Below, piece after piece: positions 6,102-27,200 of a stretch of DNA of 32,000 nucleotides (position 1 is its first letter; each line of letters begins with the position of its first letter). The stretch is from a cyanobacterium endosymbiont of Epithemia turgida isolate EtSB Lake Yunoko (lineage in GTDB: Bacteria > Cyanobacteriota > Cyanobacteriia > Cyanobacteriales > Microcystaceae). Position numbers and translations under genes: made by a program. Location of the stretch: the NCBI RefSeq assembly GCF_000829235.1, contig NZ_AP012549.1:1830001-1862000 (forward strand), written 5' to 3'. The notes under the pieces are model-generated. The model did no database searches. It worked only from the letters and a program-made list of their open reading frames with translations, and had not been told where the DNA came from.

Positions 6102-6884
6102 TATGCCTTATACATTAATAGTAAAATTGCAGGCTTAACGACAGGAACAGTCCTACAACGCCAGGGAATTAAAATTTTTAAAAAAAGCAAGGTAGGGCAC
6201 AATTACTCACTGTTATGGACCCATAATTTTAACTTTAGGTTAATCAATCAATGGTTACAACACCATGTTATTACGGAATGCTTAGAACAATTAACTGGTA
6301 CTCAACAACCTTGTTATCGGGGTCGTGAAATTAGTCCTAATATTGCTCTATTAAGCATTTAGCCTGAGACTTAGAAATCTATACCTAAACACGGGGAATT
6401 AAAATTGCTTGAGATGCTTACTAACAAAAAATAAGACTAATTTTCACAGAAGTAGTTTAATTTTGACCACTCCTATACTCTAATCCTTAATTCTGCTCGA
6501 GAATTCAGCTATCGCTTTTTCTTCCCCTTGAAGTATAGTATGAACCAGATTAGTTACTAACTTACCATAACTTTGTTCGCGTCACTTGACCACAGAAGTT
6601 CAATCCATGAAGCAGAAGAATTACATTTCAACGATCCTTCCTTAGCGTGGATAGCTTGCAATCACAAAAAAGTAATTTTTACCAAAAAGTTGGACAATAC
6701 ACTACATACTGTGCTCGAGTTAAGTCAAACTTATTGAGGAACATATAACGCCACAATGGTCAAAAAAATATTTAAAATATCTTCTCTATGATTAAATTAG
6801 TCAATCATAGACTATCAAGTTCATCGATGCGATTATAGTCATCCGAACAATATTTATCGAGAACCTTATATACTATTAAGATAG
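6102..6884 (+). pseudogene. FAD-dependent monooxygenase relic (multiple stops and frameshifts)
   Basis: Three fragments follow the order expected for this family. (1) YALYINSKIAGLTTGTVLQRQGIKIFKKSK resembles xDVxIIGAGIAGLTTAxALQRQGIxVxIFEK, with the GxGxxG motif destroyed. (2) HLTTEVQSMKQ...PKSWTIHYIL resembles VHLxxxVxS...GADGIHSxVR, in another frame. (3) CDYSHPNN resembles the GDAAHPMxP motif. All are interrupted by stops. Confidence 0.45.
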
Positions 6885-7071
6885 TAAATCTACCAGGTTT
6901 GTTTATAATGGGAGGAGATAGATTTTCCATAAATAAAACCCAAGATATATCTCTAAATTTTGGAAAAGTAATCTTCTCAGCCTAAGCAAAAACTAATTAC
7001 TTTCTGACTTTAAGAGCAGATCACTTTCAGAAAAATTATTAGATTATCTATTTTTTACTAAAAAATTGTAC

Positions 7072-7129
7072 TTATTTAAATTTTACTAGTTATTTAAATT
7101 AATTTAAATAACTAGTAAAATTTAAATAA
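7072..7129. repeat. 58-bp perfect palindrome (29+29, no spacer)
   Basis: ttatttaaattttactagttatttaaatt | aatttaaataactagtaaaatttaaataa, checked base by base and centred between 7100 and 7101. It contains four ATTTAAAT and two ACTAGT sub-palindromes placed symmetrically. Confidence 0.95.
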
Positions 7130-7492
7130 TAATTTAGATGAATAAAGTCAACCAATTTGACTAGATAAAAATTATTACTTCTCAAAATCTTCATAAAAAA
7201 TCTTAATTATTTTTAGAAAAATCCTAGAAACTATTACGATAAATCACGTTAGCTTAAAGAAAAATTCATAAAGTACCTCTTAAAATAGACTAGATTCTGA
7301 AATAACAGAAAAATTGTCTATAAAAATTTTGGCTTAAGGTTATTTTTATTTATAGAGAGTCCTCTATTAGGTTAGAACTAAAAGTGATACAAATAACCAA
7401 CAACTAAATTCCGAGTGAGGTTAAACATAACGGTAAGAAAAATGTGTCAATAGAATAGGTAAATGCTGTTTATTTTTATAATGTAAGTTTAA

Positions 7493-9094
7493 ATGATCAC
7501 AGACGAGACAAAGCCACAAATATTTTCCTTGACAACTCCTTTGTATTATGTTAACGACGTGCCTCACATGGGGAGCGCCTATACAACTATGGTGGCTGAT
7601 GTCATAGCACGCTTTAAACGACTTAAAGGAGCCTCAGTTCTGTTTATCACAGGAACTGACGAACATGGGCAGAAAATCCAGCGCACTGCAGTAGAAAAAG
7701 ATCTTGATCCGCAACAACATTGCGATCAGGTTGTGACAAGTTTTAAAGATCTATGGCAAAAGTTGAATATTCAATATGATCGCTTTAGCCGCACTACCAG
7801 TCAACATCATGAAACGATCGTCAAGGAATTTTTCCAACGAGTCTACGACAATAACGACATTTACCTAGCTCAACAACAGGGATGGTATTGTGTTCCTTGC
7901 GAGGAATTCAAAGAAAAACGGGAATTACGAGAAGATGCGTGTTGTCCTCTTCATCCCAATAAAAAAGCTGAATGGCGTGACGAAGAAAACTATTTCTTTC
8001 GTCTGTCCAAATATCAAGAAGCTCTCGAAACCTTGTATGAAGAACATTATGATTTTATTGAACCAGAAACCCGCCGAAATGAAATCTTGAAGTTTGTTAA
8101 GCAAGGGTTACAAGATTTCTCAATTTCCCGTGTTAATGTTAGTTGGGGTTTTCCTGTTCCAGTCGATGTCAATCATACCATTTATGTTTGGTTTGATGCC
8201 CTTCTAGGATATATAAGTGCTTTACTTGATTCTAATCAGAAACCGACCCTAGAAAATGCCTTATCTAAATGGTGGCCTATTAATCTTCACTTAATTGGGA
8301 AGGATATTTTGCGCTTCCATGCAGTATATTGGCCAGCCATGTTGATGTCAGCTAAATTACCTTTACCTAAAAAAATTTTTAGCCATGGATTTCTGACTAA
8401 AAATGGTCAAAAAATGAGTAAAACTTTAGGTAATACACTTAATCCTTTTTATTTAGTAGACCGTTATGGCTCCGATGCTGTGCGTTACTATTTTCTCAAA
8501 GAAATTGAATGTGGACGCGATGGAGACTTCAATGAAACCCGTTTTGTTAATGTTCTCAATGCTGATTTAGCTAATGATTTAGGAAATTTGCTCAACCGAA
8601 CTCTTGGGATGACCAGAAAATACTGTAAAGGGATAATTCCTCGAGTAGTTAATTTTCCTTTAGACTATCCCTTAAAAAATACTGGTCAAGATTTGGGGAC
8701 GAGAGTAACTCAAGCCTATGAAACAATCAAGTTTGATCAGGTTTGTAAAGAAATTTTCAGTCTAATTCGGGCAAGTAATAAATTCATTGATGAACAAGCT
8801 CCCTGGAGTTTATTCAAACAAGGAAAACAAGCGGAAGTCGAAACTATTCTGGCTGCTGTGTTAGAATCAGTCCGCCTGAGTGCTTACTTATTGTCCCCAA
8901 TAATTCCCAATTTAAGTAATAACATCTACCAACAATTGGGTTTATCTGTTGATTTTAATGACGGCGATTACGTCCATCAAAATGCTCCCTTCACTCAACA
9001 TAGTCAGTGGGGAAAAATTGAAGTTAGTCAAACTTTAACTAAAACCCAACCTATTTTTGTTAGGCTTAACCTTCCTGAGGAAGAATCTACCTAA
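7493..9094 (+). CDS. metG: methionine--tRNA ligase
   Basis: 533 aa with class I synthetase motifs: PHMGSAY (a HIGH variant) and KMSKTLGN (KMSKS). WYCVPCEEF knuckle region and helical anticodon-binding C-terminus are present. Confidence 0.95.
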   Translation: MITDETKPQIFSLTTPLYYVNDVPHMGSAYTTMVADVIARFKRLKGASVLFITGTDEHGQKIQRTAVEKDLDPQQHCDQVVTSFKDLWQKLNIQYDRFSRTTSQHHETIVKEFFQRVYDNNDIYLAQQQGWYCVPCEEFKEKRELREDACCPLHPNKKAEWRDEENYFFRLSKYQEALETLYEEHYDFIEPETRRNEILKFVKQGLQDFSISRVNVSWGFPVPVDVNHTIYVWFDALLGYISALLDSNQKPTLENALSKWWPINLHLIGKDILRFHAVYWPAMLMSAKLPLPKKIFSHGFLTKNGQKMSKTLGNTLNPFYLVDRYGSDAVRYYFLKEIECGRDGDFNETRFVNVLNADLANDLGNLLNRTLGMTRKYCKGIIPRVVNFPLDYPLKNTGQDLGTRVTQAYETIKFDQVCKEIFSLIRASNKFIDEQAPWSLFKQGKQAEVETILAAVLESVRLSAYLLSPIIPNLSNNIYQQLGLSVDFNDGDYVHQNAPFTQHSQWGKIEVSQTLTKTQPIFVRLNLPEEEST

Positions 9095-9099
9095 ACAGG

Positions 9100-9831
9100 G
9101 TGCTAGAAAAACAATGTTTCTATTACACCTTTTCCCAATTTACAAATACTATGAAATATAAGCCAGAAATAACAAACCCATTTCACAAACCATACCTTCT
9201 CCATAATCAACCAGGAATAAGACAAATGTTTGAAGAATTTGAAGATGATTCTATATTTACGCCAGAACAGGTATTAGAAAATAGAGGACGTGTTGCGATT
9301 TTTATTGATGGCTCTAATTTATTTTATGCTGCTCTTCAATTAGGAATTGAAATTGACTATACAAAGTTGCTGTGTCGACTGACAGGAGGATCTCGGTTAT
9401 TAAGAGCTTTCTTTTATACTGGAGTTGATCGCACCAACGAAAAACAACAGGGTTTTTTATTGTGGATGCGTCGTAATGGTTATCGAGTAATCGCTAAAGA
9501 CTTGGTTCAATTACCCGACGGCTCAAAAAAAGCTAACTTAGACGTAGAAATTGCCGTTGATCTCATGGCTTTAGTCGGAGCTTATGATACCTCCGTAATC
9601 GTCAGTGGCGATGGAGACTTAGCCTATGCAGCTGATTCCGTTAGCTATCGAGGAGCGCGCATCGAAGTTGTTAGCTTGCGTTCGATGACTAGTGATAGTT
9701 TAATCAATGTCGCTGATCGTTATATTGATCTCGACCAAATAAAAGAAGATATTCAAAAAACTCCCAAACCGAACATGTCTTATGGTAGTCTTTCGGGGGT
9801 CGGGATGTTAGATAGCAATAAACCAAGATAA
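9100..9831 (+). CDS. NYN-domain (LabA-like/DUF88) predicted RNase
   Basis: The core RVAIFIDGSNLFYAA ... DVEIAVD ... VIVSGDGDLAYA is the NYN/LabA-like signature. The start is uncertain: GTG 9100, ATG 9151 or ATG 9226 (MFEEFEDD...). Confidence 0.8.
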   Translation: MLEKQCFYYTFSQFTNTMKYKPEITNPFHKPYLLHNQPGIRQMFEEFEDDSIFTPEQVLENRGRVAIFIDGSNLFYAALQLGIEIDYTKLLCRLTGGSRLLRAFFYTGVDRTNEKQQGFLLWMRRNGYRVIAKDLVQLPDGSKKANLDVEIAVDLMALVGAYDTSVIVSGDGDLAYAADSVSYRGARIEVVSLRSMTSDSLINVADRYIDLDQIKEDIQKTPKPNMSYGSLSGVGMLDSNKPR

Positions 9832-9865
9832 GGTAGGTAAGTCAGACTCAAATAACTTCAACCAA

Positions 9866-11035
9866 ATGGATGGCTTAAATTTTATTCAGAAGCGGCATCT
9901 CCAACCCAATTGGATTTTAACAGTCGGAGTGCTGTTTCTCCTCTCAGCTATCACTTCCTGCAAAGGAAACAATCAACCTCAGAGCAATCCTGACAACTCA
10001 CAGCAGGAAGCTGCTAATGCAGAAAGTCAATTAATTCTCAACAACGCAACCTTAGAGCAATCTAATGCAAAAGGAGAAATGCTTTGGAAAATTCAAGTAG
10101 ATGAGGCCGCCTACAGTCCTGATCGTAAAAAAGCTCAATTAACTGCCGTAAAAGGCAATATTTTTCAAGATGGTAAAATTGTACTTCGTATTAAAGCTGA
10201 CCAGGGAGAAATTGCTCAAGATGGACAAAAAATTTATCTTAAAGAGAACATTGTTGCTGTCGATCCTCGTAACAACGCGGTAATGCAGAGTGACGAAGTG
10301 GAGTGGAGACCCCAAGAATCTGTCCTCATGATACGAAAAAATCTGCGGGGCTCCCATCCTCAACTTACGGCTTCTGCCAAGGAGGGTAAGTATTATGCTA
10401 CTAAGCAGAAACTTGAATTTATAGGCAATATTATTGCTATTTCAAAAAAGCCTCGGATGCAACTGAAAACAGAACATCTACTATGGAAGATTCCTGAACA
10501 AAAGGTAATTGGTGATCGTTTACTTAACATAGTTCATTTCCAAGATAAAATCATCACCGACAAACTAGTTGCTAACTATGCTGAAATTCACCTCAACATC
10601 AAACAGGTCATTGTTAAAAACAATATTGAATTCAAATCAATTAAACCTCCGATACAAGTAGCAACCAACGAATTTATTTGGAAATACGAAGCACGCCAAC
10701 TCACCTCAAGCAAACCTGTCAAATTAATTCACTATCAACAGGGAGTTATCATCACTGGCAACCAAGCTGAGGTCGATCTAACTAATAGTATCGCTTATCT
10801 TCGGGGTGGCGTTCAAGGTAATAGTATGGCTAATGCTGCCAAACTATATTCAAACAATCTTACCTGGAATGTTAACACTCAGATTATTGAAGCCTTGGGA
10901 AATGTCATTTACGAACAAACCGCTCCCGACTTTAATTTAACTGGGGAAAAAGCCGTAGGCACTATACATGATAACAAAATCGTTGTCAGTGGCAATGCTC
11001 GAGATCGAGTCGTAACGGAAATTTTCACTAAATAA
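9866..11035 (+). CDS. lptC: LptC-like periplasmic LPS-transport lipoprotein (long cyanobacterial form)
   Basis: 389 aa. The N-terminal signal has a lipobox-like LSAITSC. Repeated OstA/LptC-like beta-jellyroll segments are present (LILNNATLEQSNAKGEMLWKIQVDEAAY...AQLTAVKGNIFQDGKIVLRIKADQGEI). The family call is by eye. Confidence 0.6.
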   Translation: MDGLNFIQKRHLQPNWILTVGVLFLLSAITSCKGNNQPQSNPDNSQQEAANAESQLILNNATLEQSNAKGEMLWKIQVDEAAYSPDRKKAQLTAVKGNIFQDGKIVLRIKADQGEIAQDGQKIYLKENIVAVDPRNNAVMQSDEVEWRPQESVLMIRKNLRGSHPQLTASAKEGKYYATKQKLEFIGNIIAISKKPRMQLKTEHLLWKIPEQKVIGDRLLNIVHFQDKIITDKLVANYAEIHLNIKQVIVKNNIEFKSIKPPIQVATNEFIWKYEARQLTSSKPVKLIHYQQGVIITGNQAEVDLTNSIAYLRGGVQGNSMANAAKLYSNNLTWNVNTQIIEALGNVIYEQTAPDFNLTGEKAVGTIHDNKIVVSGNARDRVVTEIFTK

Positions 11036-11054
11036 CTTAAACTAACTTTCTTTT

Positions 11055-11771
11055 ATGAGAATGGTATTACCTATGAGTGTAATTACCTCTACCATTATGA
11101 ATCCTTGCATTTTACTAGTACAACTTGACAAATACTTTAATCAACGCGCGAAAGCTGATCTGATAGAAATTGGTTACACTCCAGTGATTGTATCTGATGC
11201 TCATCAAGCTCTACTCGAAGCCGAAAAGCAACAACCGGCTATGATAGTTATTGATCATCACCGCTCAAAAAAAGCTGGGTTGACTTTGTGCCGTCAGTTG
11301 AGAAAGGTTCAAAACCGAGTGTTGATTATTATGGTGCTTGATAAAGAAAGCGTTGAAGAAAGAGTGGCTTGTTTAGAAGTAGGAGCCGATGACTATATAT
11401 TGAAAACTTATCATACTGAAAACCTATTTAGATTAGTCCATTTTTATTTGAATACTACTGAAACAGTTACTGAAAGACTTCAATTTGATCATTTAATGTT
11501 GGATTTGAACAGCCGCCAACTTTTTATAGATGAAACAGCCATTGATTTGACTATGAAGGAATTTGAATTACTTAAATACCTCATGTCTTACCCTAAAGAA
11601 ATATTAACACGAGATAAAATTTTAGAAAATGTTTGGGGATATGATTTTCAAGGCGAATCTAATGTAATCGAAGTTTATATTCGTTATTTACGCTTAAAAA
11701 TAGAGAGTAAAAATCAAAAACGATTAATCCACACTGTTCGTGGTATTGGCTATGTTCTACGAGAAGGATAG
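11055..11771 (+). CDS. OmpR/PhoB-family response regulator with degenerate receiver domain (NblR-like, tentative)
   Basis: The winged-helix C-terminus is intact (LTMKEFELLKYLMSYPKEILTRDKILENVWGYDF...TVRGIGYVL). In the receiver, the acidic pair is replaced (LLVQLDKY), the Asp is kept (IVID), the beta4 Thr/Ser is absent (IIMVLDKE) and the Lys is kept (DDYILKTY). The start is uncertain, with several Met within the first 16 codons. Confidence 0.85.
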   Translation: MRMVLPMSVITSTIMNPCILLVQLDKYFNQRAKADLIEIGYTPVIVSDAHQALLEAEKQQPAMIVIDHHRSKKAGLTLCRQLRKVQNRVLIIMVLDKESVEERVACLEVGADDYILKTYHTENLFRLVHFYLNTTETVTERLQFDHLMLDLNSRQLFIDETAIDLTMKEFELLKYLMSYPKEILTRDKILENVWGYDFQGESNVIEVYIRYLRLKIESKNQKRLIHTVRGIGYVLREG

Positions 11772-11816
11772 TCAAAAAAAAGCGAAAAAAGGGGAAAAAT
11801 TCGACTTTGGACTTTT

Positions 11817-12104
11817 TTGTTATCTTTAACTGTAATTTTTTCTAAACACTCATGTAAGATGGGACTTGCAATGAAATTATCGATTTTCTTAACCTCAACT
11901 GTTATGATTGCTATTTTATCTTTTGAATATTCTTTTCCAGAGCAGACTGAATCCCAGTTTAGTAAGGTTGAGAGTAAACTAAAAATAATTGCCCAAACCC
12001 AAGGTTAAAGCATCCCCCTGGAAGCCAAGGCAATGTTCAATGAACAAGTGAATGTTGCTGTCTTTCTACTTTCGTCGAGATATCTCCATAGTCATCACTA
12101 CTGA
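11817..12104 (+). pseudogene. signal-anchored ORF interrupted by an in-frame TAA (identity unknown)
   Basis: The track ORF 11817-12008 has a hydrophobic segment (MKLSIFLTSTVMIAILSF) and ends at a TAA. The same frame continues for 31 more codons (SIPLEAKAMFNEQVNVAVFLL...) to TGA at 12102. The TTG-type start is poor. Confidence 0.25.
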
Positions 12105-13005
12105 CTAGCTATGGGCTCTAAATGTGTAGGTTTTTAAACATCAGAAAAACCTTTTTTCTATTTCGAATTCCTCAGCATTGTTGATTGCCCAACATAGTAT
12201 GTGGACACGTATACCCACCAGCTAGAGTAATAAGGTTCACCCTTTAATTTCTTGGCGTATCCTCAAGTGTCTATTAAACTAATTCTAGTCTAGCTTAGTC
12301 GTTAAGTACTGAGCAGCTTTAATTCTGAGACGGCAATGTTACGATTATTCCCCTTCGGTTCGATACATCCCGCTTGTTTATAGCGCGGGGCTTACCGCAC
12401 GGAAGCTAAATAGAAAAGTCCCAATCTTGTTCAACAAAGTTAAAAATTAGTGTTAAATTTATGCTAATTAGTGTCTCTGTTAGTTTTGAGCTTCTCATTC
12501 TAGAAAATTTTCTAAGTCTTTCAGTATTAGTTGATAGTTAAACCACTACCTAAATAACTCCTAATATAATGTTGTTCATTTATGTCTTACGACTAATTTC
12601 TTCTACATCGAAGAATAAATCTTTAAGTTGACGATTCTTAGATGTAAAGTATCTTTAAATAAAGGACAAAGTTAACTGAAATACTAGTCTACCTTAAGTG
12701 AAATTCTGTCCAATCTCGTAATGGAAAGTTCAGTGGATAGATAGTGTGAGAATAATACGAAGAAACTTAGAGAAGCCTTGAGGATTTGTCTCCATTGAGA
12801 TTTGATGAACAAGGAATAAGTAAACGTAGTCACGTATACATTTTTCAATAGTATTTAGTTATCTTCATTAGCTTCCTAACATAGTAGATAGACGGTTGGT
12901 TAACTTGTTTAATTTAAAATCAAGAGAGCGCGCAAGGAATAAAACCAAAAGTGGATAGGCTCAGAAAACTAGGATAAAATGCTCTAATAACTTCTGGCTT
13001 AAACT

Positions 13006-13797
13006 ATGTTTAAAACTCAAGAATTACGGATTGGTTGGCTCTATCCTACCTTAATGAGTACCTATGGTGATCGCGGTAACGTCATCTGTCTTCAACGTCG
13101 TTGTCAATGGCGTGGACTCAATGTTACTATTGTTCCTGTCACTCAGCAAACAGAAGCCTCGATATTCAAAGAAATCGATGTCATTGTCGGGGGTGGCGCG
13201 CAAGATCGTCAACAAGAAATTGTGATGCGAGATTTACGAGGGGCTAAAGCTGAGGCTTTTAAGGAGAAAGTTGAAGAAGGAACCCCTGGAGTGTTTACCT
13301 GCGGTTCTCCTCAGCTTTTGGGTCATTACTATGAACCTGCTTTAGGACGACGCATTGAAGGCTTAGGATTACTGGATTTAGTTAGTAAACATCCCGGGGC
13401 GAATGTATCTCGTTGTATTGGTGATGTTGTCTTTGAAATCACTTCTAGTCCCCTAGCAGAAACTTTAAGAAAACAATTAGGGAAACCTCCGATTATTATC
13501 GGATTTGAGAATCATGGAGGGCGAACTTATTTAGGAAAAGTTGAACCTTTAGGAAAAATGATTAAAGGGTATGGGAATAACGGTGAAGATGGTTATGAAG
13601 GAGCTTTTTATCGTCATGTGATCGCTACTTATTGCCACGGACCTTTGTTACCTAAAAATCCTTTTATTGCTGACTGGTTAATTCAAACAGCTTTACAAGA
13701 AAAATATCAAGCCGAAATTTCCTTAGACCCTCTTGATGATTCTCTCGTAGAACAAGCTAGGAAAGCAATGTTAAAACGCCTTGAAGTTAATTGTTAA
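13006..13797 (+). CDS. gatD: CobQ/CobB-type (GATase_3) glutamine amidotransferase, GatD-like
   Basis: 263 aa. It shows LRIGWLYPTLMSTYGDRGNV, the nucleophile context VFTCGSPQLLGHYY and the His context GFENHGGRTYLG, typical of the MurT-associated GatD family. Called by eye. Confidence 0.6.
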   Translation: MFKTQELRIGWLYPTLMSTYGDRGNVICLQRRCQWRGLNVTIVPVTQQTEASIFKEIDVIVGGGAQDRQQEIVMRDLRGAKAEAFKEKVEEGTPGVFTCGSPQLLGHYYEPALGRRIEGLGLLDLVSKHPGANVSRCIGDVVFEITSSPLAETLRKQLGKPPIIIGFENHGGRTYLGKVEPLGKMIKGYGNNGEDGYEGAFYRHVIATYCHGPLLPKNPFIADWLIQTALQEKYQAEISLDPLDDSLVEQARKAMLKRLEVNC

Positions 13798-14206
13798 CTC
13801 AGTCCTATAATTTATTTTTTAAAAATATATTTTCCCGCTTAAACTGATATTAATTATTAAAATTTTTTAGTTTATTTACTTTTATATACCTAAATAAAAC
13901 TACTATGATATCAAGAACAAATATGGGTGAATCGACGATTGAAATATATTTAAGATTTGACAAAATAGGTAATTCATATTATATTAGTTAACCTATTTTA
14001 ATACCACTAAATATTATGATAAACTATTTATAACTATAGCATAACAAAATTTTAAGTTTATAATATTTCGCCCAAGCAGCTTATTGAGTTAAGTCAGAAA
14101 TACTTGCTTAAGTAGAAATGTTTATGCATACCTAATGACGTTCATTTCAAACGCTAAAACAGTTTAGATAACTGTTTGACTTCTAAGGATTTAAATGGAT
14201 TTAACT

Positions 14207-14308
14207 TTATATTTTGTTACAAGTCTGTATATAGAGAATTAGTAAAAATATAGTAGGAACTAAAACAAATAGAATAGTAACCATAACGCCAAGATTATTA
14301 ACTTACAT
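14207..14308 (-). pseudogene. psbM: psbM (photosystem II reaction centre protein M) with a stop at codon 2
   Basis: The minus-strand frame, checked codon by codon, reads M * V N N L G V M V T I L F V L V P T I F L L I L Y I Q T C N K I *. Cyanobacterial PsbM begins MQVNNLGF...LFVLVPTVFLLILYIQT (from memory). The TAA at 14303-14305 replaces the Gln codon. Confidence 0.85.
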
Positions 14309-14502
14309 GGATTCTCTTCTTTTGTTTCTTTGAAATAAAAAATAACTACTTTTGGCAAATCATTTTCTTCTGTTATGGAGACTGATATAGTCTCACAATC
14401 TCGTTTAGCAGTGGAAAAATTTTAATAGTTCATAGAACTATCGTCAAAGACGATACACTTTATTCGTTAGTCTCACCCGAACTGAATGACCTACAACATC
14501 TC

Positions 14503-14850
14503 CTATACCCTATAACAACAAACATCGCTCAAAGATACACCTAAAGGAGATGAGCAGGGTTTAGTTTTGATCTTAACTGGTTCATTAACCAATGTTTGAC
14601 AGGATAAGCGATAATTATTGGGCTTTTTCTTAAGTGTACGCTGTTCAGGATCTGTTCTTGGCGATAAATTTTCTATCCCTTCAACAATTTCTCCGATACA
14701 AGTCCTACATTGACCATGACCCCCACTATTAATGAGTTTTCTCTTTAAGGTATAGAGATAAATCTGATTTTACAGAGCTTTTTCTCTTAGGTTAGCTCCT
14801 TGAGCTGCTACAACATCTTTATTTTCCTTAAACAAAAAAATAGTCGTCTA
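14503..14850 (-). pseudogene. [2Fe-2S] ferredoxin-domain protein relic (start lost, in-frame TAA, first Cys ligand lost)
   Basis: The minus frame reads [96 protein letters not shown]. This matches the cyanobacterial family ..KFxKENKEI..GANLRxKALENGIDLY..NCGGxGQCGTCIVEIxEGxENLSPRT..YRLACQT..TKP. The TAA lies at 14770-14772 and NCGG has become NSGG. Confidence 0.8.
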
Positions 14851-14953
14851 CTCTTATTATCCAAATTGAAGTCTTTAATATTCTTTCATATTTTTAATAA
14901 GTTTTAACACTCTGCTAATCTTAACTAACAATTTTGTTTGAGTTAAGTAGTAT

Positions 14954-15718
14954 CTATATGTCTCTAACGGGAACTTGGCGATCACGTAAGTATCCTTTTA
15001 CTTCACCGATGGTCAACTTACCGCAATGGAGCAAAGAAGCTAATAAAGCAGCTTGAGCACGACCTTTAGAGAAGGATTCATAGATATGTTGACAATTTCC
15101 CGCTCCTCCAGAAGCAATTACTGGAATTTCTACACGTTCAGCGATAGTGTGAGTTAATTCTAGATCATATCCAGTCTGAGTTCCATCCGCATCCATACTG
15201 GTTACCAACAACTCCCCTGCACCCCGTTTTTCTACGTCTTGTGCCCACTCGATAGCATCTATCCCCGTACTTTCCCGTCCTCCCCGCACATAGACCTCCC
15301 AGCCGTCATTATATTTACGCCGTCTAGCATCAATAGCCACTACGATACACTGTTGACCAAAACGATCACTAGCACGGTTGATAAAATCGGGCTTACGAAC
15401 AGCAGCGGAATTGATGCTAATTTTGTCAGCTCCGGCCCTTAACAGGTTTTTGATATTTTCTAGGGTTTGAATGCCACCCCCAACGGTTAAAGGGATAAAA
15501 ATGGCTTCGGCAGTACGATAAACGACATCAATAATGGTGTTTCGTCCCTCATGAGTGGCAGTAATATCGAGAAAGATTAATTCATCAGCCCCCGCATCAT
15601 TGTAAACTTTGGCTAATTCCACAGGATCTCCAGCATCTTGGAGATTAATAAAATTAACACCTTTGACCACGCGACCGGCACTAACATCGAGACAAGGTAA
15701 AATTCGTTTAGCTAACAT
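14954..15718 (-). CDS. hisF: imidazole glycerol phosphate synthase cyclase subunit
   Basis: 254 aa starting [12 protein letters not shown]...[25 protein letters not shown]-like TVGGGI and the C-terminal SGGAG signature are present. Confidence 0.95.
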
Positions 15719-15805
15719 TTCGACGAGGTTTTTAGGGTAAATATGTAGTTTATTCCTAATTTTAGACTTAAAAAGTAATCACTTAAATAAGAGTTGATTT
15801 TCAGT

Positions 15806-17029
15806 TTAATTGTTCAGAGCTTCAATGTTTACTTCTCCTTTTTCGGTTATCCAAGCGAGAGTTTTAACGTGATTTTTTAGCGCATAATTACGAATTTCTT
15901 CGGTAGAACGTCCCCCCAATTCTAGGGCTACCCTTAACTTTTCTGAAGACTGTCTAAGTTGTTGAGCATAACTTAAGGCCATTGATTGGGCCTGGGAAGT
16001 TTGAGCAATCACGAGAAAATCAATTAGAGGAGGAGTTTGTGGCAAAATAGCAGTAGTTAATAAATAAGTGTATAGGTCTTCAAGATTGAAAGAAAATCCA
16101 ATACCTGGAGTTGATGTTTGCTGAGGATGGTAAACCCCAAGAAGTTTGTCATAGCGTCCACCCTGGCCTAAAATTTGTAATTGATTGTTACTTTTACCAA
16201 CAGCTTTAAACACAATTCCTGTATAGTAATCAAAGGTTTGAATTAAACTTAAATCCAAGGTAAATGGAAAAGGCTTTGACCAGCTTGTTTCAATTAGTTC
16301 GACCAATGATTTTAAATCATTTACACTTTTTTGTCCAGCTTTATCCAACTCTAATTGGAAAATTTTTTGGAGTACCTGAGCAGGAGTTCCCCGTAAATCA
16401 AACAATAGTTTTCCTCGTTGTTGTAAGTCAACAGAAGGGTAGTCAAGATTTTCCAAGGTTACATAGTCAAGTTGAGCCAAACATTGACGCACCTGACTTT
16501 TAAGGGAACCTGGAAAAGGTTCAAGAAGCGATCGCGTCAGACTGGCTTCTCCTAGAATAAGATGCCAATAGGGAGTTCCTAACTGTTCAAGACAATTAGC
16601 GACTAATAATAAAATTTCCGCATCCGCTAAAACTCCTCCCGAAAAAAGTAATTCTACCCCGGCTTGATAAAACTCTAATTGTTTTCCGTGATGACCCACC
16701 GGAGGCTCTCGAAAAACATTAGCACGATAACAGAGGCGTTGGGGATAGGTAGTATCAGCCATGCGAGTAACAGCAGTCCGGGCAATCGAGGCAGTTAGTT
16801 CTGGCCGTAATCCTAATTGCCCGGCAGAACTATCCTGTAGTTGAATCACCGTTGAAAGATCAATAGCTCCTCCAGCCATCAATGTTTCTAACCGTTCAAT
16901 GGTGGAAGTGACAACACGTTGATATCCCCATTGTCCAAATACTTGTTGAAGAAGATCATTAATCCAAGCCTTTTGTACAACTTCGAGGGGAAGTAAGTCT
17001 CTTGCTCCTGCGGGTGGTTGATGAATCAT
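15806..17029 (-). CDS. hisZ: ATP phosphoribosyltransferase regulatory subunit (HisRS paralog)
   Basis: 407 aa starting MIHQPPAGARDLLPLEV. It has a class II HisRS-like core (YRANVFR, EFYQAGVELL) and the HisZ length, and it sits next to hisF. Confidence 0.85.
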   Translation of the reverse strand: MIHQPPAGARDLLPLEVVQKAWINDLLQQVFGQWGYQRVVTSTIERLETLMAGGAIDLSTVIQLQDSSAGQLGLRPELTASIARTAVTRMADTTYPQRLCYRANVFREPPVGHHGKQLEFYQAGVELLFSGGVLADAEILLLVANCLEQLGTPYWHLILGEASLTRSLLEPFPGSLKSQVRQCLAQLDYVTLENLDYPSVDLQQRGKLLFDLRGTPAQVLQKIFQLELDKAGQKSVNDLKSLVELIETSWSKPFPFTLDLSLIQTFDYYTGIVFKAVGKSNNQLQILGQGGRYDKLLGVYHPQQTSTPGIGFSFNLEDLYTYLLTTAILPQTPPLIDFLVIAQTSQAQSMALSYAQQLRQSSEKLRVALELGGRSTEEIRNYALKNHVKTLAWITEKGEVNIEALNN

Positions 17030-18099
17030 GGTTTTCTTTGGCTTATTGCTTTGTATTGTTTTGCCCCAAAAAGGGGAGGGTTAAAGCTTTGTCTTTTAGA
17101 CTAGCGTAGTGTAATATTGCCTTTTGCTAGTGGAGTAGAAATTACTTCTTTGTCCAAAATAAAAAGTAAAAAAGTTCTCCCTCAATTGATTTGTCAAAAG
17201 ATTTATTTTTGTCATTGCTCATCAGTTGATCAGTCTATTTTTTAGCTTGAATACCTACTAAGTGTTTAGAGTTTCCTTGCGAAACTTTATTGATATAAAC
17301 CTTGTTCATGGTGAGTTATTTTTCTGCAAAAGAAGCTAATCATAATGATCCATGACATACTGAATTACTTGGTTCAGTTTTTAGGTCCTCTCGTAATTCT
17401 ATAATGGCTTAGAACATTATATTCTTGACGATCAAAATGTTAACGTGCTCGTCGAATGACAGAATAAACAACAGAAACAAGAGTTTTTAAAATCTCTAGC
17501 GGTTGCTTTGGTTTTTCTAGCTCAGATTCATGTTTAGGCAGTTCAGGAGGAGGTTTAATCCTAGTTTTTACCAATGTTTGACCCAAAGCCTGATATTGTT
17601 CATAAGCTAAGGACTTAATTGACTTTTAGATAAAATTAATGGGTGTTTTGAGTCAATGTAACTTGAAATAATTTGTAGGCAGTTTCAGTTCCTAAGGTAA
17701 TAGCGTTCAATATATCTAGCTAAATCGAGATCATTTAAGCTGGCTTTTCAAGAATGCTTTATAGGCATAATTTACTGATTTTTATGATAATTGATTAGTT
17801 TATTCCTGTTTTCTGTTTTACCTTTATATGTATTAGTTAGAATGAAGACAACAACAAAAAGTAACTTTTAGGTAACGTTAGCGAATTTACTTGATACTCA
17901 CATTTATTGGAAGTCCAAGAATTGTATAATATGGTCGATGAGATTGTATTTAAATAGTCGTTGTTAAATAGGAAAACTCATGCAAAATTCTAAGCTCATC
18001 CTTTCAGGGACTGAAACTTCTATTTTTTCTTATATTGTTTCTACTGTGTCTTCAAATACCAAATTTTTAGCTGTATAACTAGAATCACTTAGCGCTCAG

Positions 18100-18942
18100 C
18101 TATAGCGATTTTGCTTTATAAAAATTCTGTAGCCAGGGTAATGCTCCATCTAAAGCTTGACTTAAAACATGATGAATATGCCCGTTAGTAGCTAATAATC
18201 TCCCTGACTTAAGAATTAAAGTACTCTCATCATAAGCAGATATTTTTCCTCCTGCTTCTTCTAAAATGATAATCCCTGCGCTAATATCCCAAGGGCTTAA
18301 TCCTCTTTCCCAATACCCATCAAGGCGTCCACAAGCTACATTGGCCAAGTCAAGAGCGGCTGATCCTGTACGGCGAACCCCTTGAGTGATATGAGTTAAG
18401 TAACAAAATTCAGTATAGTTAGTATCTTGAGTCTCTTGGCGATCATAAGGAAATCCTGTGACTAGTAAACTATTACTTAATTCTGTGGTTTTAGAAACTT
18501 GAATAGAACGATAATTAAGGGTAGCTCCTAATCCTTTCGCCGCTCTAAACAACTCCTTTTTAAAGGGATCATAAATGGCTCCCACTTGGGGTATTCCCTC
18601 TATCAATAACCCGACAGATACGGCGTAAATAGGATAGCCATGGGCATAATTAGTGGTTCCATCAAGAGGATCAATTACCCAAAGATAATCACTCTCAGCT
18701 ACTCCTAAGAGACCAGATTCTTCAGCTAAAATTTGATGTTGAGGAACTCGACGGCGTAGAATATTTAAGATGGCTGCTTCCGCTGTTTTATCAGCTTCGG
18801 TGACTAAATCTCCAGGACGACCTTTTTCCTCAATTTTTTCTAACTTACCCCAAAGATCTTGTAAAATCACTCCAGCAGTCATCACCGCTTCTGTGGCAAC
18901 CTCTAAGAGTATTTCTAGTTTGTTTTGACTTGGTTTGTACAT
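18100..18942 (-). CDS. inositol monophosphatase family phosphatase (SuhB/HisN-like)
   Basis: 280 aa with IMPase motifs LVTEADKTAE, WVIDPLDGTTNYAHG and WDISAGIIILEEAGG. Confidence 0.85.
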   Translation of the reverse strand: MYKPSQNKLEILLEVATEAVMTAGVILQDLWGKLEKIEEKGRPGDLVTEADKTAEAAILNILRRRVPQHQILAEESGLLGVAESDYLWVIDPLDGTTNYAHGYPIYAVSVGLLIEGIPQVGAIYDPFKKELFRAAKGLGATLNYRSIQVSKTTELSNSLLVTGFPYDRQETQDTNYTEFCYLTHITQGVRRTGSAALDLANVACGRLDGYWERGLSPWDISAGIIILEEAGGKISAYDESTLILKSGRLLATNGHIHHVLSQALDGALPWLQNFYKAKSL

Positions 18943-19083
18943 GACTAATAGTTCACTGTTAACTATTTTTAATTAAATAAAGGAAACCTTAAAGTAGTTT
19001 TTAAAATCTCTATTTCTCTCCCTCCAGTAATTGAGGATATAATTGCCTATCATTTATTAATTTAATTATTATCCATATAAAAT

Positions 19084-19436
19084 TTAATTTTTTTTCCCCT
19101 TCCCAAAATGAAGATCAAATTTAATCTCATAAACTTGATCTTCATTTTCAGTTTCTACTTCTAAGCTAGATCGAGTAGATCGAGCATAACTAACACACAA
19201 TAAAGCATTACCTTTGTCTTTTAATTCCAAAGATAATCCTACAGCTTCAGGTTGATAGACTTTTCCTCAAAAAATACTTGTAGTAGAGACACTGCAAGCT
19301 CTATTTCTACACAAAAAAGCTAATTATCACTATATTCTTCATAGTGTGGAAGAATATAGTGATTATCGAGGACTTCTAAAATGTATTCTTTTCCTTCTTG
19401 ACGATGGTTAATACGAACTGTATGATAACAGGCTAT
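19084..19436 (-). pseudogene. plant-type (PetF-like) [2Fe-2S] ferredoxin relic: start ATG to ATA, frameshift, TAG and TGA stops, third Cys ligand lost
   Basis: Frame A reads (I)ACYHTVRINHRQEGKEYILEVLDNHYILPHYEEYSDN* with TAG at 19320-19322. Frame B reads AFLCRNRACSVSTTSIF*GKVYQPEAVGLSLELKDKGNALLCVSYARSTRSSLEVETENEDQVYEIKFDLHFGKGKKN* with TGA at 19267-19269. The family pattern is YxVxIxH..GxxYxLEVxxDxYIL..AEE.G..LP.SCRAGxCTTCA..I.EGxVDQP.AMGL.PEL..KGYALLCVSYPRSDLxVETxxEDEVY..QFG.YFGKG. Confidence 0.8.
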
Positions 19437-19550
19437 AGTTAAACAAGACAGAGTGCTAGTGACAGTAGGAACAAGCCTAGACCTGATTACAACTCCGCTC
19501 TTTTTCTATGGTAAACTTTTTTACTTTTTTCGTAAATAGTTAAGTTATTA

Positions 19551-19595
19551 AAACATTAATATAAATCAAGTATCTGATTATTTATATTAATGTTT
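19551..19595 (-). terminator. probable intrinsic terminator of lpxC
   Basis: 16-bp perfect stem aaacattaatataaat / atttatattaatgttt with a 13-nt loop, starting 5 nt after the lpxC stop on the minus strand. It runs into a U-rich tail (ttttaataa). The stem is all-AT apart from one G:C pair. Confidence 0.5.
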
Positions 19596-19599
19596 ACTC

Positions 19600-20424
19600 T
19601 TAAGAATTCAACTCTTCTTGGATTGCCATAGCTAATTGAACATGAAGCTTATGACTTGCTTTGTAGGCCAAAAAATGCCCTTGAGGAATGGATCCTAATA
19701 AACTTAAATCCCCAATAAAATCTAATAATTTATGACGGGCAGGTTCATTTTCAAATCTCAAAGGAAGATTTAACCATTTTTCGTGATCACACACCAAGGC
19801 ATTTTCTAGACTCCCTCCCTGAATTAAACCTGCCTTTTGTAGGTTTTTAATTTGATCAGCAAACCCGAAAGTTCTAGCAGGGGCGATTGCCTCTTCAAAA
19901 GATTCTATCCTAGGATTCCAACTGTACCACTGATTGCCAATAGCAGAGTAAGGAAAATCAATTCCATAGGTGAAACGAGTCTCAGACGCAGGTAGCGCAG
20001 CCACAAAAGCATCTCCATCCCTAATCCAAATCGGGGTTAATAAGGGAGAACCGGCGGACAGTGAAGAAGGACTAACACCCCCTTGAATCATCGCTTTAAA
20101 CCATTCTTGAGCAGATCCATCTAACAACGGTACTTCTGGCCCATTAATTTCAATACGAGCATCTTCGACCCCAATAGCGATTAACGTGGATAGAAGATGT
20201 TCAACCGTACGAATGACTACCTTTCCTTGACCTAATTCTGTTGATAAAGTCGTTTGACTAACTGAAGCTACCTCAGCACGAATTATAGGATTTCCTGGTA
20301 AATCTACTCTAACAAAATAGCGACCTTCTCCTGATTTTGCAGGTAGAATACTTACCTGCGTTTTTACCCCAGAATGTAACCCAACCCCCGATACTGTAAT
20401 AACTTCTTTAACCGTAGAACTCAT
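19600..20424 (-). CDS. lpxC: UDP-3-O-acyl-N-acetylglucosamine deacetylase
   Basis: [19 protein letters not shown]...TVEHLLS...[10 protein letters not shown]...ASHKLH are LpxC signatures. I prefer ATG 20424, preceded by gtgaggataatt (an SD-like GAGGA), over the track's TTG at 20445. Confidence 0.9.
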
Positions 20425-20867
20425 AATTATCCTCACTATTATCAAGGTATAAAAAATAGGACATAATCAATTATTGTTTGTTCAAATCTAATCTCTATTA
20501 CTTAACTTCATATATCATTCTAATACTTCAGCTACTTTTGAGAGTTTTAATTCTTATTCAAGTAAATACAGAGAATAAAAGCTGTATTAGCTGCTAATTG
20601 TCTTTCTCATAGTTCTTTTTCATGGATATCTTGAAAGCATGGAGTTTACTTCAATACATCTAAACTAGAGATGACATTCCCTCTACCTCCTGACAAGTAA
20701 AACGGGATAATTTCTAAAAAATAATCTTTCCATTAATTGAAAAAACTTGAGTTTATTTAAGGTTTTCGTCAACTATTTGAATAAATGAGCCTAAGTTCCT
20801 TATTAATTGCATTTTTTGGCTTATAATTAATCGTACCGTAGCTAACCCAATATAAAATAGATTTATC

Positions 20868-20897
20868 TACTCTAATTTATTTAAATAAATTAGAGTA
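20868..20897. repeat. 30-bp perfect palindrome in the bamA-lpxC spacer
   Basis: tactctaatttattt | aaataaattagagta, centred between 20882 and 20883 on an ATTTAAAT core. Confidence 0.9.
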
Positions 20898-21248
20898 ATT
20901 CTTCCAGATTTTAATCAGTCCCTATATCGTTAAATCTTGGTTGTATCTCCGACGATCAGGATAAATTATATTCTATTGCTAATTATTATCTATAGTGCTT
21001 TTACTCATGGTAAAAAAATAAGCGAGGTAGCAACTGTCTATCAAATAAATTGTTAGTTTTAAATCGAACTTTATAGAAATAAATTGGAATAGTTTTATTT
21101 GACATTTTTAGACAGAAAAACTCCATCAATCCGAAAAGTAAGTTGTTTAACTTTCACCGAATAAAGGTGATAATATTGTCCTCTAATTAAATTAATTTGA
21201 AGTAATTTTAAAAAAATCAAGGGGAAAATAATAAAATCTAGTTTTTCA

Positions 21249-23675
21249 TCAAAACCTTTCCCCAATACCAAAGTGGAGGCGGGAATCTCCCTCATTATTA
21301 ACTCCATAGTCAACCCGAATCGGTCCAACTGGTGATTGAATGCGAACACCAAGGCCGTAACCATAACCATCACTAGGCAATCCTCGAATTGTGCCTGGAA
21401 AGCCTTTTACTGAGCGTTGAGACTTAATTGTTGTCCCATAGTCAATAAAGAGAGCTGCTCCAACTGCTGGAATGATAGGAAAGCGGTATTCTGCTGTTGC
21501 TTGAAAATAACTACGTCCATTTCCTAATTCTCCTTCATCGTAACCTCGCACTGAGTTACTTCCCCCAATGACAAAGGCTTCATAAGGAGGTAAATCTTCG
21601 AAAACTGTCCCTGCTTGAAAATTAAAGGCTAATGCTTGAGGTTTTGGCTGATCCTCAGCAATAAAGCCTAAATCAATAAAATCTACAGGGATATAGTGAC
21701 TATAGCTTCCTCGTAATCGGGTAAAGAAAATACTGCCTGAACCTACGGGTATAGTTTGTTCGACTCCCAAACGTAACAGATGACCACTCGTAGGACGTAA
21801 GGGATTGTTACGAAAGTCCTGAGAAGCTCCAAAACTGATAGTAAACAGGTCATCTTTTCCATTATCACTAAAGGCTAAGGGTTGAGAGGGAAAACCATTA
21901 AGAGGGGCTGACAAAGCCGCAATATCACCCTCCGCATTTTCCACTTGAACCCGTTGATAGTTGAAACCTAGGGAAGTTCGCCAATCGGGTACACTAAAGG
22001 CATCATCTGCCAAAGGACGTACAAAAGTTACTCCACCCCCAGTCCGAACTACCCGTGGACTATCAAAGTCGTTGAGGGTTCTAATCGAAGAATGATCTCC
22101 ATCAAAGACTAGAGAAATAGTCCGTCTACGAAATCCATTAACCGTATAAGCAGTACGAAAAGGATCACCGGCAATCCAAGGATCGGTGAAATTGACATCG
22201 AAGAGTAATTCACGTTCTCCAACTTGAACCTCACCCCCAATAGTTTGGTTATTTCCTCCTAGGTTTTGCTCTTGATAACTGAATGTTCCAAACAGTCCGC
22301 TAGTGGAACTAATACCAGCTCCCGCAGCCAGAGATCCTGTATTTCCTTCTACTACATCTACATTAACAATAACTTCTCGCGGATCTTCCCCAGGGCTAAA
22401 AGAAATTCTGACATCTTCGAACAACCCTAAACTAAAAACTCTTTGCAAATCAGTTTGAGCGATTCTGCGGTTAAAAACATTCCCTGGTTCGAGTTGCATC
22501 TCACGAGTCACAATAAAAGAGCGTGTTCGACCATTAATGGGTTCATCCTCTGCGTCGAAAAATCTCACTTGTACGTCTTGAATTACCCCTTCAGATACCA
22601 CTAAGGTTACAATTCCATCATCCCCAACTTTAGGAGAACCAATAACTTGAGCTAGATCATAGCCTTGTTCAGAATACCATTCATTAAGTTTTTGGATACC
22701 GTTTTGTAATTCCCTTAGGTTAAGAATTGTTCTATACTGATCCCCAAAAATATCCTTAACAACTTCAGGAGGTAATGCTCTAGCTTCCTTATCTGTGCCT
22801 GTTTCTACGACAACTTCACTCAGAGTTGGGTTAGCTTGCACATCGAAGGTAATGCGTACCCCTAAAGGTGTATCGGTAGGGGTAACTTTAACATTAGAAA
22901 AGAATCCAGTGGCATAAATTGCATTGACATCCTCTTGCAGCAGAGAGCGAGTAGCTGTTCGTCCTGGCCTAGTTTGAACAGTGTTATAGACTAGATTTCC
23001 TAGGTCCTCGTCAACGCCACTGACTAAAACTTCTACTACTAAAACCCTGGGTTCTTCCCCTGATATTTCTTCAATTAAAGGACTATCTGACGAGGATGGT
23101 TCAATAGGAGTCGGTATTTCTTCTGGGGTTGGTAATTCCTCCGTTTCGGGTAATTCCACCTCAGATACTTCAATTCGTTTTTGAGTATCCGTTGAAGAAG
23201 TTAAATCTACCGCAGTCATCTTTTTTAACTTGGAAACCAAGGGGGTTCTCTGCTCTAAGACTGGTGAACTCTGAAAGTCTAAATCTTCTGAGGTTACAGG
23301 CATTATTAATGCCGGAGTTTCTTGAGAAACAGCTGAATAATTAGCCTTTAAATCTGTCCTAGAAGTTACATCGTCTGTCCTAGAAGTTACATCGTCTGTC
23401 CTAGAAGTTACATCGGTTGCCGTCACGTTTTCCAATATAGAAACCGACTTAGGTGCTAGTACAGCCCCCTCCAGCATGATGGACTTAGAGCCCATCATGC
23501 TCACTATAGTCTCTGAATTCTCCTCTTTGATAGTTGTTTCAATTAGAGGAACTATAGTTTCTCCCCTAATAGACTGGGCCAGGTTTAACATAGTGGCAGT
23601 CACAAAAGGAACTACCACCATAGGAGATAACCGTAATTTTTTAATCTCGTTTGACACTTCCACACACCCAATCAA
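21249..23675 (-). CDS. bamA: outer membrane protein assembly factor BamA / cyanobacterial Omp85
   Basis: 808 aa. It has an N-terminal Pro/Glu-rich linker (ELPETEELPTPEEIPTPIEP), POTRA repeats and a C-terminal 16-strand beta-barrel ending ...RLHFGIGERF with a terminal aromatic residue. The start is uncertain (alternative Met at MVVVPFVTATMLNLAQS). Confidence 0.9.
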   Translation of the reverse strand: MIGCVEVSNEIKKLRLSPMVVVPFVTATMLNLAQSIRGETIVPLIETTIKEENSETIVSMMGSKSIMLEGAVLAPKSVSILENVTATDVTSRTDDVTSRTDDVTSRTDLKANYSAVSQETPALIMPVTSEDLDFQSSPVLEQRTPLVSKLKKMTAVDLTSSTDTQKRIEVSEVELPETEELPTPEEIPTPIEPSSSDSPLIEEISGEEPRVLVVEVLVSGVDEDLGNLVYNTVQTRPGRTATRSLLQEDVNAIYATGFFSNVKVTPTDTPLGVRITFDVQANPTLSEVVVETGTDKEARALPPEVVKDIFGDQYRTILNLRELQNGIQKLNEWYSEQGYDLAQVIGSPKVGDDGIVTLVVSEGVIQDVQVRFFDAEDEPINGRTRSFIVTREMQLEPGNVFNRRIAQTDLQRVFSLGLFEDVRISFSPGEDPREVIVNVDVVEGNTGSLAAGAGISSTSGLFGTFSYQEQNLGGNNQTIGGEVQVGERELLFDVNFTDPWIAGDPFRTAYTVNGFRRRTISLVFDGDHSSIRTLNDFDSPRVVRTGGGVTFVRPLADDAFSVPDWRTSLGFNYQRVQVENAEGDIAALSAPLNGFPSQPLAFSDNGKDDLFTISFGASQDFRNNPLRPTSGHLLRLGVEQTIPVGSGSIFFTRLRGSYSHYIPVDFIDLGFIAEDQPKPQALAFNFQAGTVFEDLPPYEAFVIGGSNSVRGYDEGELGNGRSYFQATAEYRFPIIPAVGAALFIDYGTTIKSQRSVKGFPGTIRGLPSDGYGYGLGVRIQSPVGPIRVDYGVNNEGDSRLHFGIGERF
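23353..23415 (-). repeat. 3 x 21-bp perfect tandem repeat inside bamA (encodes TDDVTSR x3)
   Basis: The unit tctgtcctagaagttacatcg repeats three times without mismatch (23353-23373, 23374-23394, 23395-23415). It is in frame, in the N-terminal linker region VTATDVTSRTDDVTSRTDDVTSRTDL. Confidence 0.95.
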
Positions 23676-26954: not shown

Positions 26955-27141
26955 AGAGTTATGGTGAAAAAAAAACACCTAATAGTTAGGTCTAAGAAAT
27001 TATCCGGCTATTTACTCCGGCTTCATCCCTTTGGATCATAATGGACAGAGGGAATTTCGGGCTAGTCTTTAAGGTTGCGTTCACCTTCAGTGCGCCTTTA
27101 GAGATCGTACTTTTGAGGCAATCTTGAACTGATGCGTTATT

Positions 27142-27200
27142 TCTTCAGTAAATCATCTAAAATAATGGTGTTACCATTATTTTAGATGATTTACTGAAGA
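27142..27200. repeat. 59-nt perfect hairpin (28-bp stem, 3-nt loop) upstream of ndhB
   Basis: tcttcagtaaatcatctaaaataatggt - gtt - accattattttagatgatttactgaaga, with arms verified as exact reverse complements. It is followed on the plus strand by tttt. Confidence 0.95.

Follow-up and report, generated by a model that had tools for sequence, protein, structure and literature searches.

A psbM pseudogene of the Epithemia turgida diazoplast: a nonsense codon shared with related diatom endosymbionts and probable neutral decay

The spheroid body (SB), or diazoplast, of the diatom Epithemia turgida (EtSB), an obligate N2-fixing endosymbiont, was the first non-photosynthetic cyanobacterium to be described and is the classic case of such an organism. 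That EtSB has lost photosynthesis completely has been on record from the publication of its genome onward (PMC5638926; PMC12377750). Most of the genes for photosystems I and II (PSI and PSII) are missing from it, and no functional PSI or PSII gene is found in RgSB (PMC5638926). The tempo of pseudogenization differs among the spheroid-body lineages (PMC5638926), and the non-coding regions of their genomes probably contain the remnants of degraded genes (PMC11131595). Estimates of the age of the symbiosis in the sources used here run from ~12 to 35 million years (PMC5638926, PMC12903740, PMC11070190). PSII is likewise absent from UCYN-A, the nitroplast of Braarudosphaera bigelowii and a related N2-fixing endosymbiont of the Crocosphaera group (PMC11070190; PMC12377750). 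Unlike the diazoplasts, UCYN-A has kept PSI, and it has 57 pseudogenes as against more than 150 (PMC12377750); its psbM gene is plainly absent in Table S2 of PMC12903740.

For psbM, the same table (BMC Genomics 2026), in which marks denote pseudogenes with internal stops or frameshifts that are often unannotated, has the entry '(broken)' under EtSB, pseudogene KPI85-01055 under the E. adnata SB and '--' (no ortholog found) under the SBs of E. pelagica, E. clementina, R. gibberula and R. gibba. Each PSI or PSII row for EtSB is either '--' or a pseudogene, and none is intact. The genome-wide survey of both photosystems that a sequence-only reading of this DNA had called for is therefore published in that table, and it leaves no surviving photosystem in EtSB. 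Since it is tabulated there, the psbM pseudogene of EtSB is already on record, and it is an ordinary one. Other spheroid-body pseudogenes (psbA ETSB-0445, psbB ETSB-1343 and psbD ETSB-0755, and bciB in RgSB) reflect the same lineage-specific decay after photosynthesis was lost (PMC5638926). In comparison with these, psbM still looks almost intact and has taken fewer hits, because it is much smaller. We describe here the lesion, its occurrence in sister lineages and the pace at which the relic has changed. Based on these sequence comparisons, the feature is very probably a vertically inherited, non-functional psbM relic that would have been inactivated on the diazoplast stem and would have drifted neutrally ever since.

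The psbM relic and its locus

The window, i.e. the whole stretch of 32,000 nucleotides that was analysed, comes from the EtSB chromosome of 2,794,318 bp. It has ~35% G+C, and ~63% of it lies in ORFs of at least 90 aa. Its housekeeping genes are leuC, fusA, metG, lptC, a response regulator gene, GATase_3, hisF, hisZ, lpxC, bamA, purC, ndhB and mnmA. Loci of other N2-fixing endosymbionts of rhopalodiacean diatoms are collinear with the window over ~20 kb. Among the matches listed for GATase_3, identity to the window is 94% for the E. clementina SB, 93% for the R. gibberula SB and 87% for the E. pelagica SB, and free-living Crocosphaera and Cyanothece come next at ~80%. The features discussed below are collected in Table 1.

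Table 1. Features of the psbM locus, orthologous relics in other diazoplasts and further decayed genes (coordinates are those of the window unless another locus is named)
Feature	Coordinates	Strand	Description or basis
psbM pseudogene	14207..14308	minus	34 codons including terminal TAA; Pfam, PDB PsbM chains, syntenic orthologous relics
Nonsense codon TAA = codon 2	14303..14305	minus	CAA (Gln) in free-living psbM
25-aa residual ORF (MVTILFVLVPTIFLLILYIQTCNKI) from derived ATG, codon 9	14207..14284	minus	ORF list; probably meaningless
E. adnata SB psbM relic	L109 4374-4475		Met-stop-VNNLGVMATILFVLVPTIFLLILYIQTCNKI-stop; 1 nt from window; TAA at codon 2
JGI contig L098 psbM relic	L098 5374-5475		Met-stop-VNNLGVMAIILFVLVPTVF-stop-LILYIQTCNNI-stop; TAA at codon 2 and new TGA at codon 22
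R. gibba SB psbM relic	L103 5324-5436		ATT TTA GTT at codons 1-3; 5-bp insertion; terminal stop lost
E. pelagica SB psbM relic	L004 10831-10932		Ile-stop-VNNYNFIFAIISVLIFAVFLLITHTQTILSI-stop; ATA TAA at codons 1-2; same length and terminal stop
GATase_3 / lipid II isoglutaminyl synthase subunit, intact, = BAP18021.1 of EtSB	13006..13797	plus	Synteny anchor
hisF, intact, = BAP18022.1 of EtSB	14954..15718	minus	Sequence identity
98-aa 2Fe-2S ferredoxin-like (Fer2) pseudogene, just upstream of psbM	14557..14841	minus	tblastn
Fer2-psbM spacer	14381..14524	minus	83% identical to RgSB, partly conserved with E. pelagica SB
DUF192 gene remnant, first ~70 codons	11835-12050	plus	Truncated
FAD/NAD-binding amine-oxidase-like relic	6108-7021	plus	Frameshifted, 31% identity; 368-aa intact in SU2 (L005 2917-4020)
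Second Fer2-domain gene	19090-19585	minus	Frameshifted (three HSPs in different frames); between inositol monophosphatase gene and lpxC
92-aa ORF, DUF2887 N-terminal fragment (profile positions 9-52 of 200)	21095-21373	minus	Overlaps bamA start

On the minus strand, the relic begins ATG TAA GTT AAT AAT CTT GGC GTT ATG GTT ACT and ends AAA ATA TAA; its translation is Met-stop-VNNLGVMVTILFVLVPTIFLLILYIQTCNKI-stop. If codon 2 is taken as Gln, its match to PF05151 (PsbM) reaches 55 bits (E = 7e-15, cutoff 24), which passes the gathering score, and spans profile positions 1-29 of 31. Residues 3-33 alone reach 48.5 bits, and the 25-aa ORF that starts at an internal ATG reaches 37.7 bits. The top match among solved structures is the PsbM chain of Synechocystis, 6wj6_M (E = 1.7e-10). 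Functional PsbM (PF05151; Synechocystis PCC 6803, PSII structures 6wj6 and 7n8o) is a single-helix protein of ~35 aa, and the relic likewise matches MQVNNLGFIASILFVLVPTVFLLILFIQTG, residues 1-30. Its core departs from canonical PsbM at 5 of 29 positions, and every replacement is conservative, from one hydrophobic residue to another. Unlike the Synechocystis PCC 6803 protein, the EtSB relic has a stop at codon 2, appears to evolve neutrally and has no PSII to join.

A functional psbM would be an uninterrupted ORF of ~31-38 codons from ATG to stop; no such ORF is present, codon 2 being TAA. Free-living psbM begins ATG CAA GTT AAY AAT, where the codon-2 state, like the Fer2-psbM gene order described below, is taken from four PsbM proteins of distant cyanobacteria with differing neighbours, the sole matches to the 33-aa PsbM query padded to 41 aa, none of which is a close outgroup. 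The difference between CAA there and TAA here indicates that the lesion is one C-to-T change. The sequence-only reading had proposed as much, namely a near-canonical PsbM frame broken by TAA at a codon that specifies Gln elsewhere, through a single point mutation, and passed over by the ORF track. Each of these points is borne out: the sequence reads that way and is recognized by PF05151, free-living genes have CAA, the change to TAA is the sole visible lesion in EtSB, and at this place the 20-aa ORF list contains only the 25-aa piece. The alignment to PsbM is far beyond chance.

BAP18021.1 and BAP18022.1 carry consecutive numbers, and thus no annotated protein lies between GATase_3 and hisF. 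The interval does contain a second relic, that of a Fer2 gene. In a tblastn search with the Fer2 protein of locus L084, from a free-living Microcystaceae MAG, this relic was recovered at E = 1e-39 and 66% identity. Thr stands in place of its start Met, the frame is interrupted by one stop, and Ser has taken the place of a cluster Cys in the motif CGGxGQCGTC. Fer2, an 87-bp spacer and psbM follow one another in this order in the free-living loci L082-L089, which belong to Microcystaceae MAGs and not to the closest relatives of EtSB. The psbM relic therefore sits where the functional gene sits in relatives, with the Fer2 ortholog directly upstream, and we infer that it occupies its ancestral position in a decaying two-gene block. 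The psbM relics of four other diazoplasts are also located within the GATase_3-hisF interval. The state of the Fer2 ortholog varies: in RgSB its ORF looks intact (L003 12212-12562) and has a Pfam Fer2 match, in EcSB it is frameshifted, and in the E. pelagica SB it is full of stops. In the E. adnata SB, KPI85-01055 is ~11 genes away from KPI85-01115 (pfkB), which is consistent with the distance of 17 kb between the relic and pfkB in the window. The psbM pseudogene entries of PMC12903740 Table S2 concern the same locus, and the verdict, a pseudogene with an internal stop, is the same as ours.

The region between the two relics was also inspected. The spacer is kept at 83% identity in RgSB, although psbM itself is gone from that genome. 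It contains a hairpin, TATCGTC-AAA-GACGATA, at 14439-14455, whose closing C:G pair is T:A in the E. pelagica SB, a compensatory change. A promoter-like TTGACG-17-TAAAAT at 14447-14419 overlaps the hairpin and lies ~110 nt upstream of the relic ATG. By their sequence, these elements are possibly a fossil Fer2 terminator and psbM promoter. An Rfam scan of the window, including 14381-14524, and a tRNA scan found nothing.

The nonsense codon in related diazoplasts

Relics orthologous to that of EtSB were found in the E. adnata SB, in a JGI metagenome contig (L098) and in the SBs of R. gibba and E. pelagica (Table 1). In the R. gibba SB, the gene caller had flagged a 24-aa ORF of the region as 'PsbM (weak)'. 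The E. pelagica SB relic has lost its start codon, and 14 of its 29 core residues are changed. For the SBs of E. clementina, R. musculus and R. gibberula, the spacer is unalignable and no psbM relic is detectable. The disabling lesions differ among the sister lineages represented by L098, R. gibba and E. pelagica, which is the independent accumulation seen in a unitary pseudogene. The relics of the R. gibba and E. pelagica SBs are additional to those in the table of PMC12903740, where both genomes are given as '--'; in the portions of that paper on which we draw, the nature, sharing and age of the psbM lesion are not discussed. A metagenome scan with the relic-specific pattern returned four further matches, which were rejected as chance occurrences in AT-rich DNA, as they have neither a PsbM-like translation nor similarity to the window.

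Five flanking genes supplied 536 four-fold degenerate sites for a neighbour-joining tree. Its topology is (SU2,(E. pelagica,(R. gibberula, E. clementina = R. musculus,(R. gibba,(JGI L098, window))))), with the E. pelagica SB as outgroup to all other sampled diazoplasts. The sequences of the E. clementina SB (L002) and of the 'Rhopalodia musculus' SB (L104/L105) are identical at 536/536 of these sites; the two are the same or nearly the same lineage despite their different host names.

The deepest split within the sampled set of diazoplasts thus has TAA at codon 2 on either side, which indicates that the nonsense mutation most likely predates their radiation; the timing is inferred from the distribution of the codon over the tree. 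By parsimony, a single origin on the stem takes two steps and convergence takes three. The gap is narrow, since the region is gone from two lineages, E. clementina and R. gibberula, which therefore say nothing on the codon. A recent inactivation within separate lineages, in which psbM would have stayed under selection until lately and TAA would have arisen independently in E. pelagica and in the E. turgida group, costs only that one extra step, and a C-to-T change is favoured in an AT-rich genome. Against it stand the identical nonsense codon in E. pelagica and the TTA of R. gibba, which is one step from TAA and two from CAA. In addition, none of the sampled diazoplasts has functional photosystems (PMC5638926; PMC12377750; Table S2 of PMC12903740), which leaves no reason for selection on psbM to have outlasted their common ancestor. 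Together with the rates of change reported in the next section, these observations make recent inactivation improbable. The sequence-only reading had spoken of a recent or ongoing loss of oxygenic photosynthesis, or at least of PSII-M. That the lineage has lost oxygenic photosynthesis holds true; 'recent or ongoing' is not supported, given that TAA is shared across the deepest split.

If the stop is indeed older than the radiation, the relics also inform on the interval that preceded it. The inferred ancestor of the sampled relics is Met-stop-VNNLGFIATILFVLVPTVFLLILYIQTCNKI-stop, i.e. a canonical core with the stop codon only; the ancestral core is also given as Met-stop-VNNLGFIATILFVLVPTVFLLILYIQT, continuing. 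At ~60 non-synonymous sites, no amino-acid replacement is common to all relics, which suggests that psbM had been free of selection only briefly when the lineages split. On these sequences, we would give about even chances to psbM having been released from selection a little earlier than the sampled diazoplasts radiated. The comparison suggests that prior neutral time stayed below ~0.05 substitutions per site, the path from the node to EtSB being 0.08-0.10; this is a lead that depends on distant outgroups and 29 codons.

Pace of decay

In 6/6 pairs, the Jukes-Cantor distance between relics amounts to 1.15-1.66 times that at four-fold sites of the flanking genes, and the overall ratio is 1.45 by least-squares branch lengths. 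Differences are spread evenly over the codon positions (e.g. 15/9/14 for the window and the E. pelagica SB), with no excess at third positions. The signature of purifying selection that a functional psbM would carry was thus not found. A rate at least equal to the synonymous one and the even use of codon positions point to a relic that is drifting neutrally. Both observations argue against recent inactivation, as divergence reaches at least the synonymous rate in every pair. So does the comparison of the window with L098, in which 4/5 differences alter the protein, a new stop being among them.

What speaks for recent inactivation is the appearance of the EtSB relic, with its few and conservative replacements, and the number of changes on its own lineage, ~5 substitutions observed as against ~8 expected. 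This deficit is not significant, as there are only 102 nt, and weak constraint on the relic in the EtSB lineage remains formally conceivable. In the 87-nt core, 4 changes are derived in the window and 20 in E. pelagica when polarised by free-living psbM from cyanobacteria more distant than the closest free-living relatives (Rippkaea PCC 8801/8802, SU2 and Crocosphaera), with the C-terminal tail left unpolarised. These counts match the four-fold branch lengths of ~0.10 (window) and ~0.255 (E. pelagica), which rest on the SU2 outgroup, near saturation at four-fold sites (d ~0.6-0.8). When AT-biased neutral decay of the ancestor was simulated, the probability of at most 5 amino-acid differences was 0.33 at d = 0.10 and 0.14 at d = 0.13; the preservation of the EtSB relic is unremarkable by this measure. 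Its near-canonical look is explained by its length of 102 nt and by the short EtSB branch (~0.08-0.10 substitutions per site). Judging from these sequence comparisons, good preservation would be a sign of neither youth nor selection.

At four-fold sites, the branch of the E. pelagica SB is ~2.5 times as long as that of E. turgida (0.255 vs 0.10, SU2 outgroup), in keeping with the smaller size and stronger reduction of the E. pelagica SB genome. Of the PSII genes in Table S2 of PMC12903740, only psbI is free of pseudogene marks in EcSB (P3F56-09970), RgSB (RGRSB-1056) and the R. gibba SB (JJP05-04535), and it is a pseudogene in EtSB, EaSB and EpSB. As a small PSII subunit that seems intact in the absence of PSII, it may merit the same rate test.

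The locus might still be useful, through a truncated, 25-aa PsbM-like membrane peptide or through a full-length product made by read-through of the stop. In EtSB and EaSB, the ATG at codon 9 opens a frame that encodes an unbroken hydrophobic helix, a promoter-like site lies ~110 nt upstream of the relic, and diazoplasts keep thylakoid membranes (PMC11070190). That ATG is derived in the group of E. turgida, E. adnata and L098, however; codon 9 is ATC in R. gibba, where a frameshift is also present, and ATA in E. pelagica, whose relic has no in-frame ATG. The 25-aa ORF is moreover cut by the TGA at codon 22 in the close relative L098, the relic changes at the neutral rate, and the SBs of E. clementina, R. 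musculus and R. gibberula lack the whole region. In EtSB, the partner subunits of PSII are all absent or broken (PMC12903740 Table S2). There is no sign of read-through or reassignment of TAA, and the neighbouring genes end normally. A useful product of either kind is therefore very unlikely. It would be surprising if the relic had been re-used in the endosymbionts of E. turgida and E. adnata, with a 25-aa PsbM-derived membrane micropeptide, started at the ATG of codon 9, serving some role other than PSII in the thylakoids of a non-photosynthetic endosymbiont.

Lastly, the idea that TAA is a sequencing or assembly artefact and psbM really intact, which has in its favour only that TAA and CAA are one base apart, is refuted: the Logan assembly of SRR29904087, which was made independently from a 2024 run, is 100% identical to the window over 7100-23382 (16,283 bp), TAA included, and four other genomes or assemblies from different laboratories have the same base, i.e. 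the E. adnata SB (GenBank CP076462 and the Logan assembly of SRR25945676), the JGI contig L098 and the E. pelagica SB. The base-call error at 14303-14305 that the sequence-only reading had wished to see excluded is thereby practically impossible.

Vertical inheritance of a dead psbM thus accounts best for the feature. The ancestral gene would have stood downstream of a small ferredoxin-like gene, itself now a pseudogene in EtSB. A single CAA-to-TAA change at codon 2 would have occurred on the stem lineage, before the split of the E. pelagica SB, the timing being deduced from the tree. Neutral drift would then have followed, at a pace set lineage by lineage. It would have left the relics of E. 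turgida and E. adnata nearly untouched and given the JGI relative its second stop. In R. gibba, it would account for the lost start, the 5-bp insertion and the lost terminal stop; in E. pelagica, for the heavily substituted sequence; and in E. clementina/R. musculus and R. gibberula, for a relic beyond detection. No product of the relic is predicted to act in photosystem II.

Other decayed genes and significance of the relic

Other genes of the window have decayed as well (Table 1). DUF192, of which a truncated remnant is left in EtSB, is intact (175-187 aa) in RgSB, in EcSB/R. musculus SB and in the free-living SU2, and it is split into two 61-aa ORFs in the R. gibba SB (L102 2529-2900). The second Fer2-domain gene is still an open ORF in RgSB (175 aa), EcSB (162 aa) and the E. 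pelagica SB (142 aa). The 92-aa ORF with a partial DUF2887 match is probably another gene fragment. A six-frame Pfam scan of the two largest uncovered gaps, with stops masked, gave a sole match, to the C-terminal end of an ISL3-family transposase; it is sub-threshold (17.4 bits, cutoff 23) and is located in a minus-strand frame of a 1.5-kb ORF-free gap at 26979-28536. The match may be what is left of a mobile element, of which the genome is reported to be free, or a chance resemblance. No Pfam match at E <= 1e-5 was obtained for the 477-aa ORF at 2-1435 (plus strand) or for the 106-aa ORF at 30998-31318 (minus strand). The pfkB ORF at 31508-31897, which seems truncated in the ORF list, was considered as a pseudogene and rejected, since it runs off the end of the window and has no in-frame stop.

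In itself, the psbM pseudogene matters little, as the loss of photosynthesis in the endosymbionts of Epithemia and Rhopalodia is established and the pseudogene is tabulated. What is added here are two further relics, those of the R. gibba and E. pelagica SBs. The shared nonsense codon may serve as a small, synapomorphy-like timing marker, by which psbM would have died before the earliest of the sampled branchings. The locus also provides a clean, small case in which the decay of one pseudogene appears to track the synonymous rate lineage by lineage. Thus, a near-perfect-looking pseudogene need not be young.
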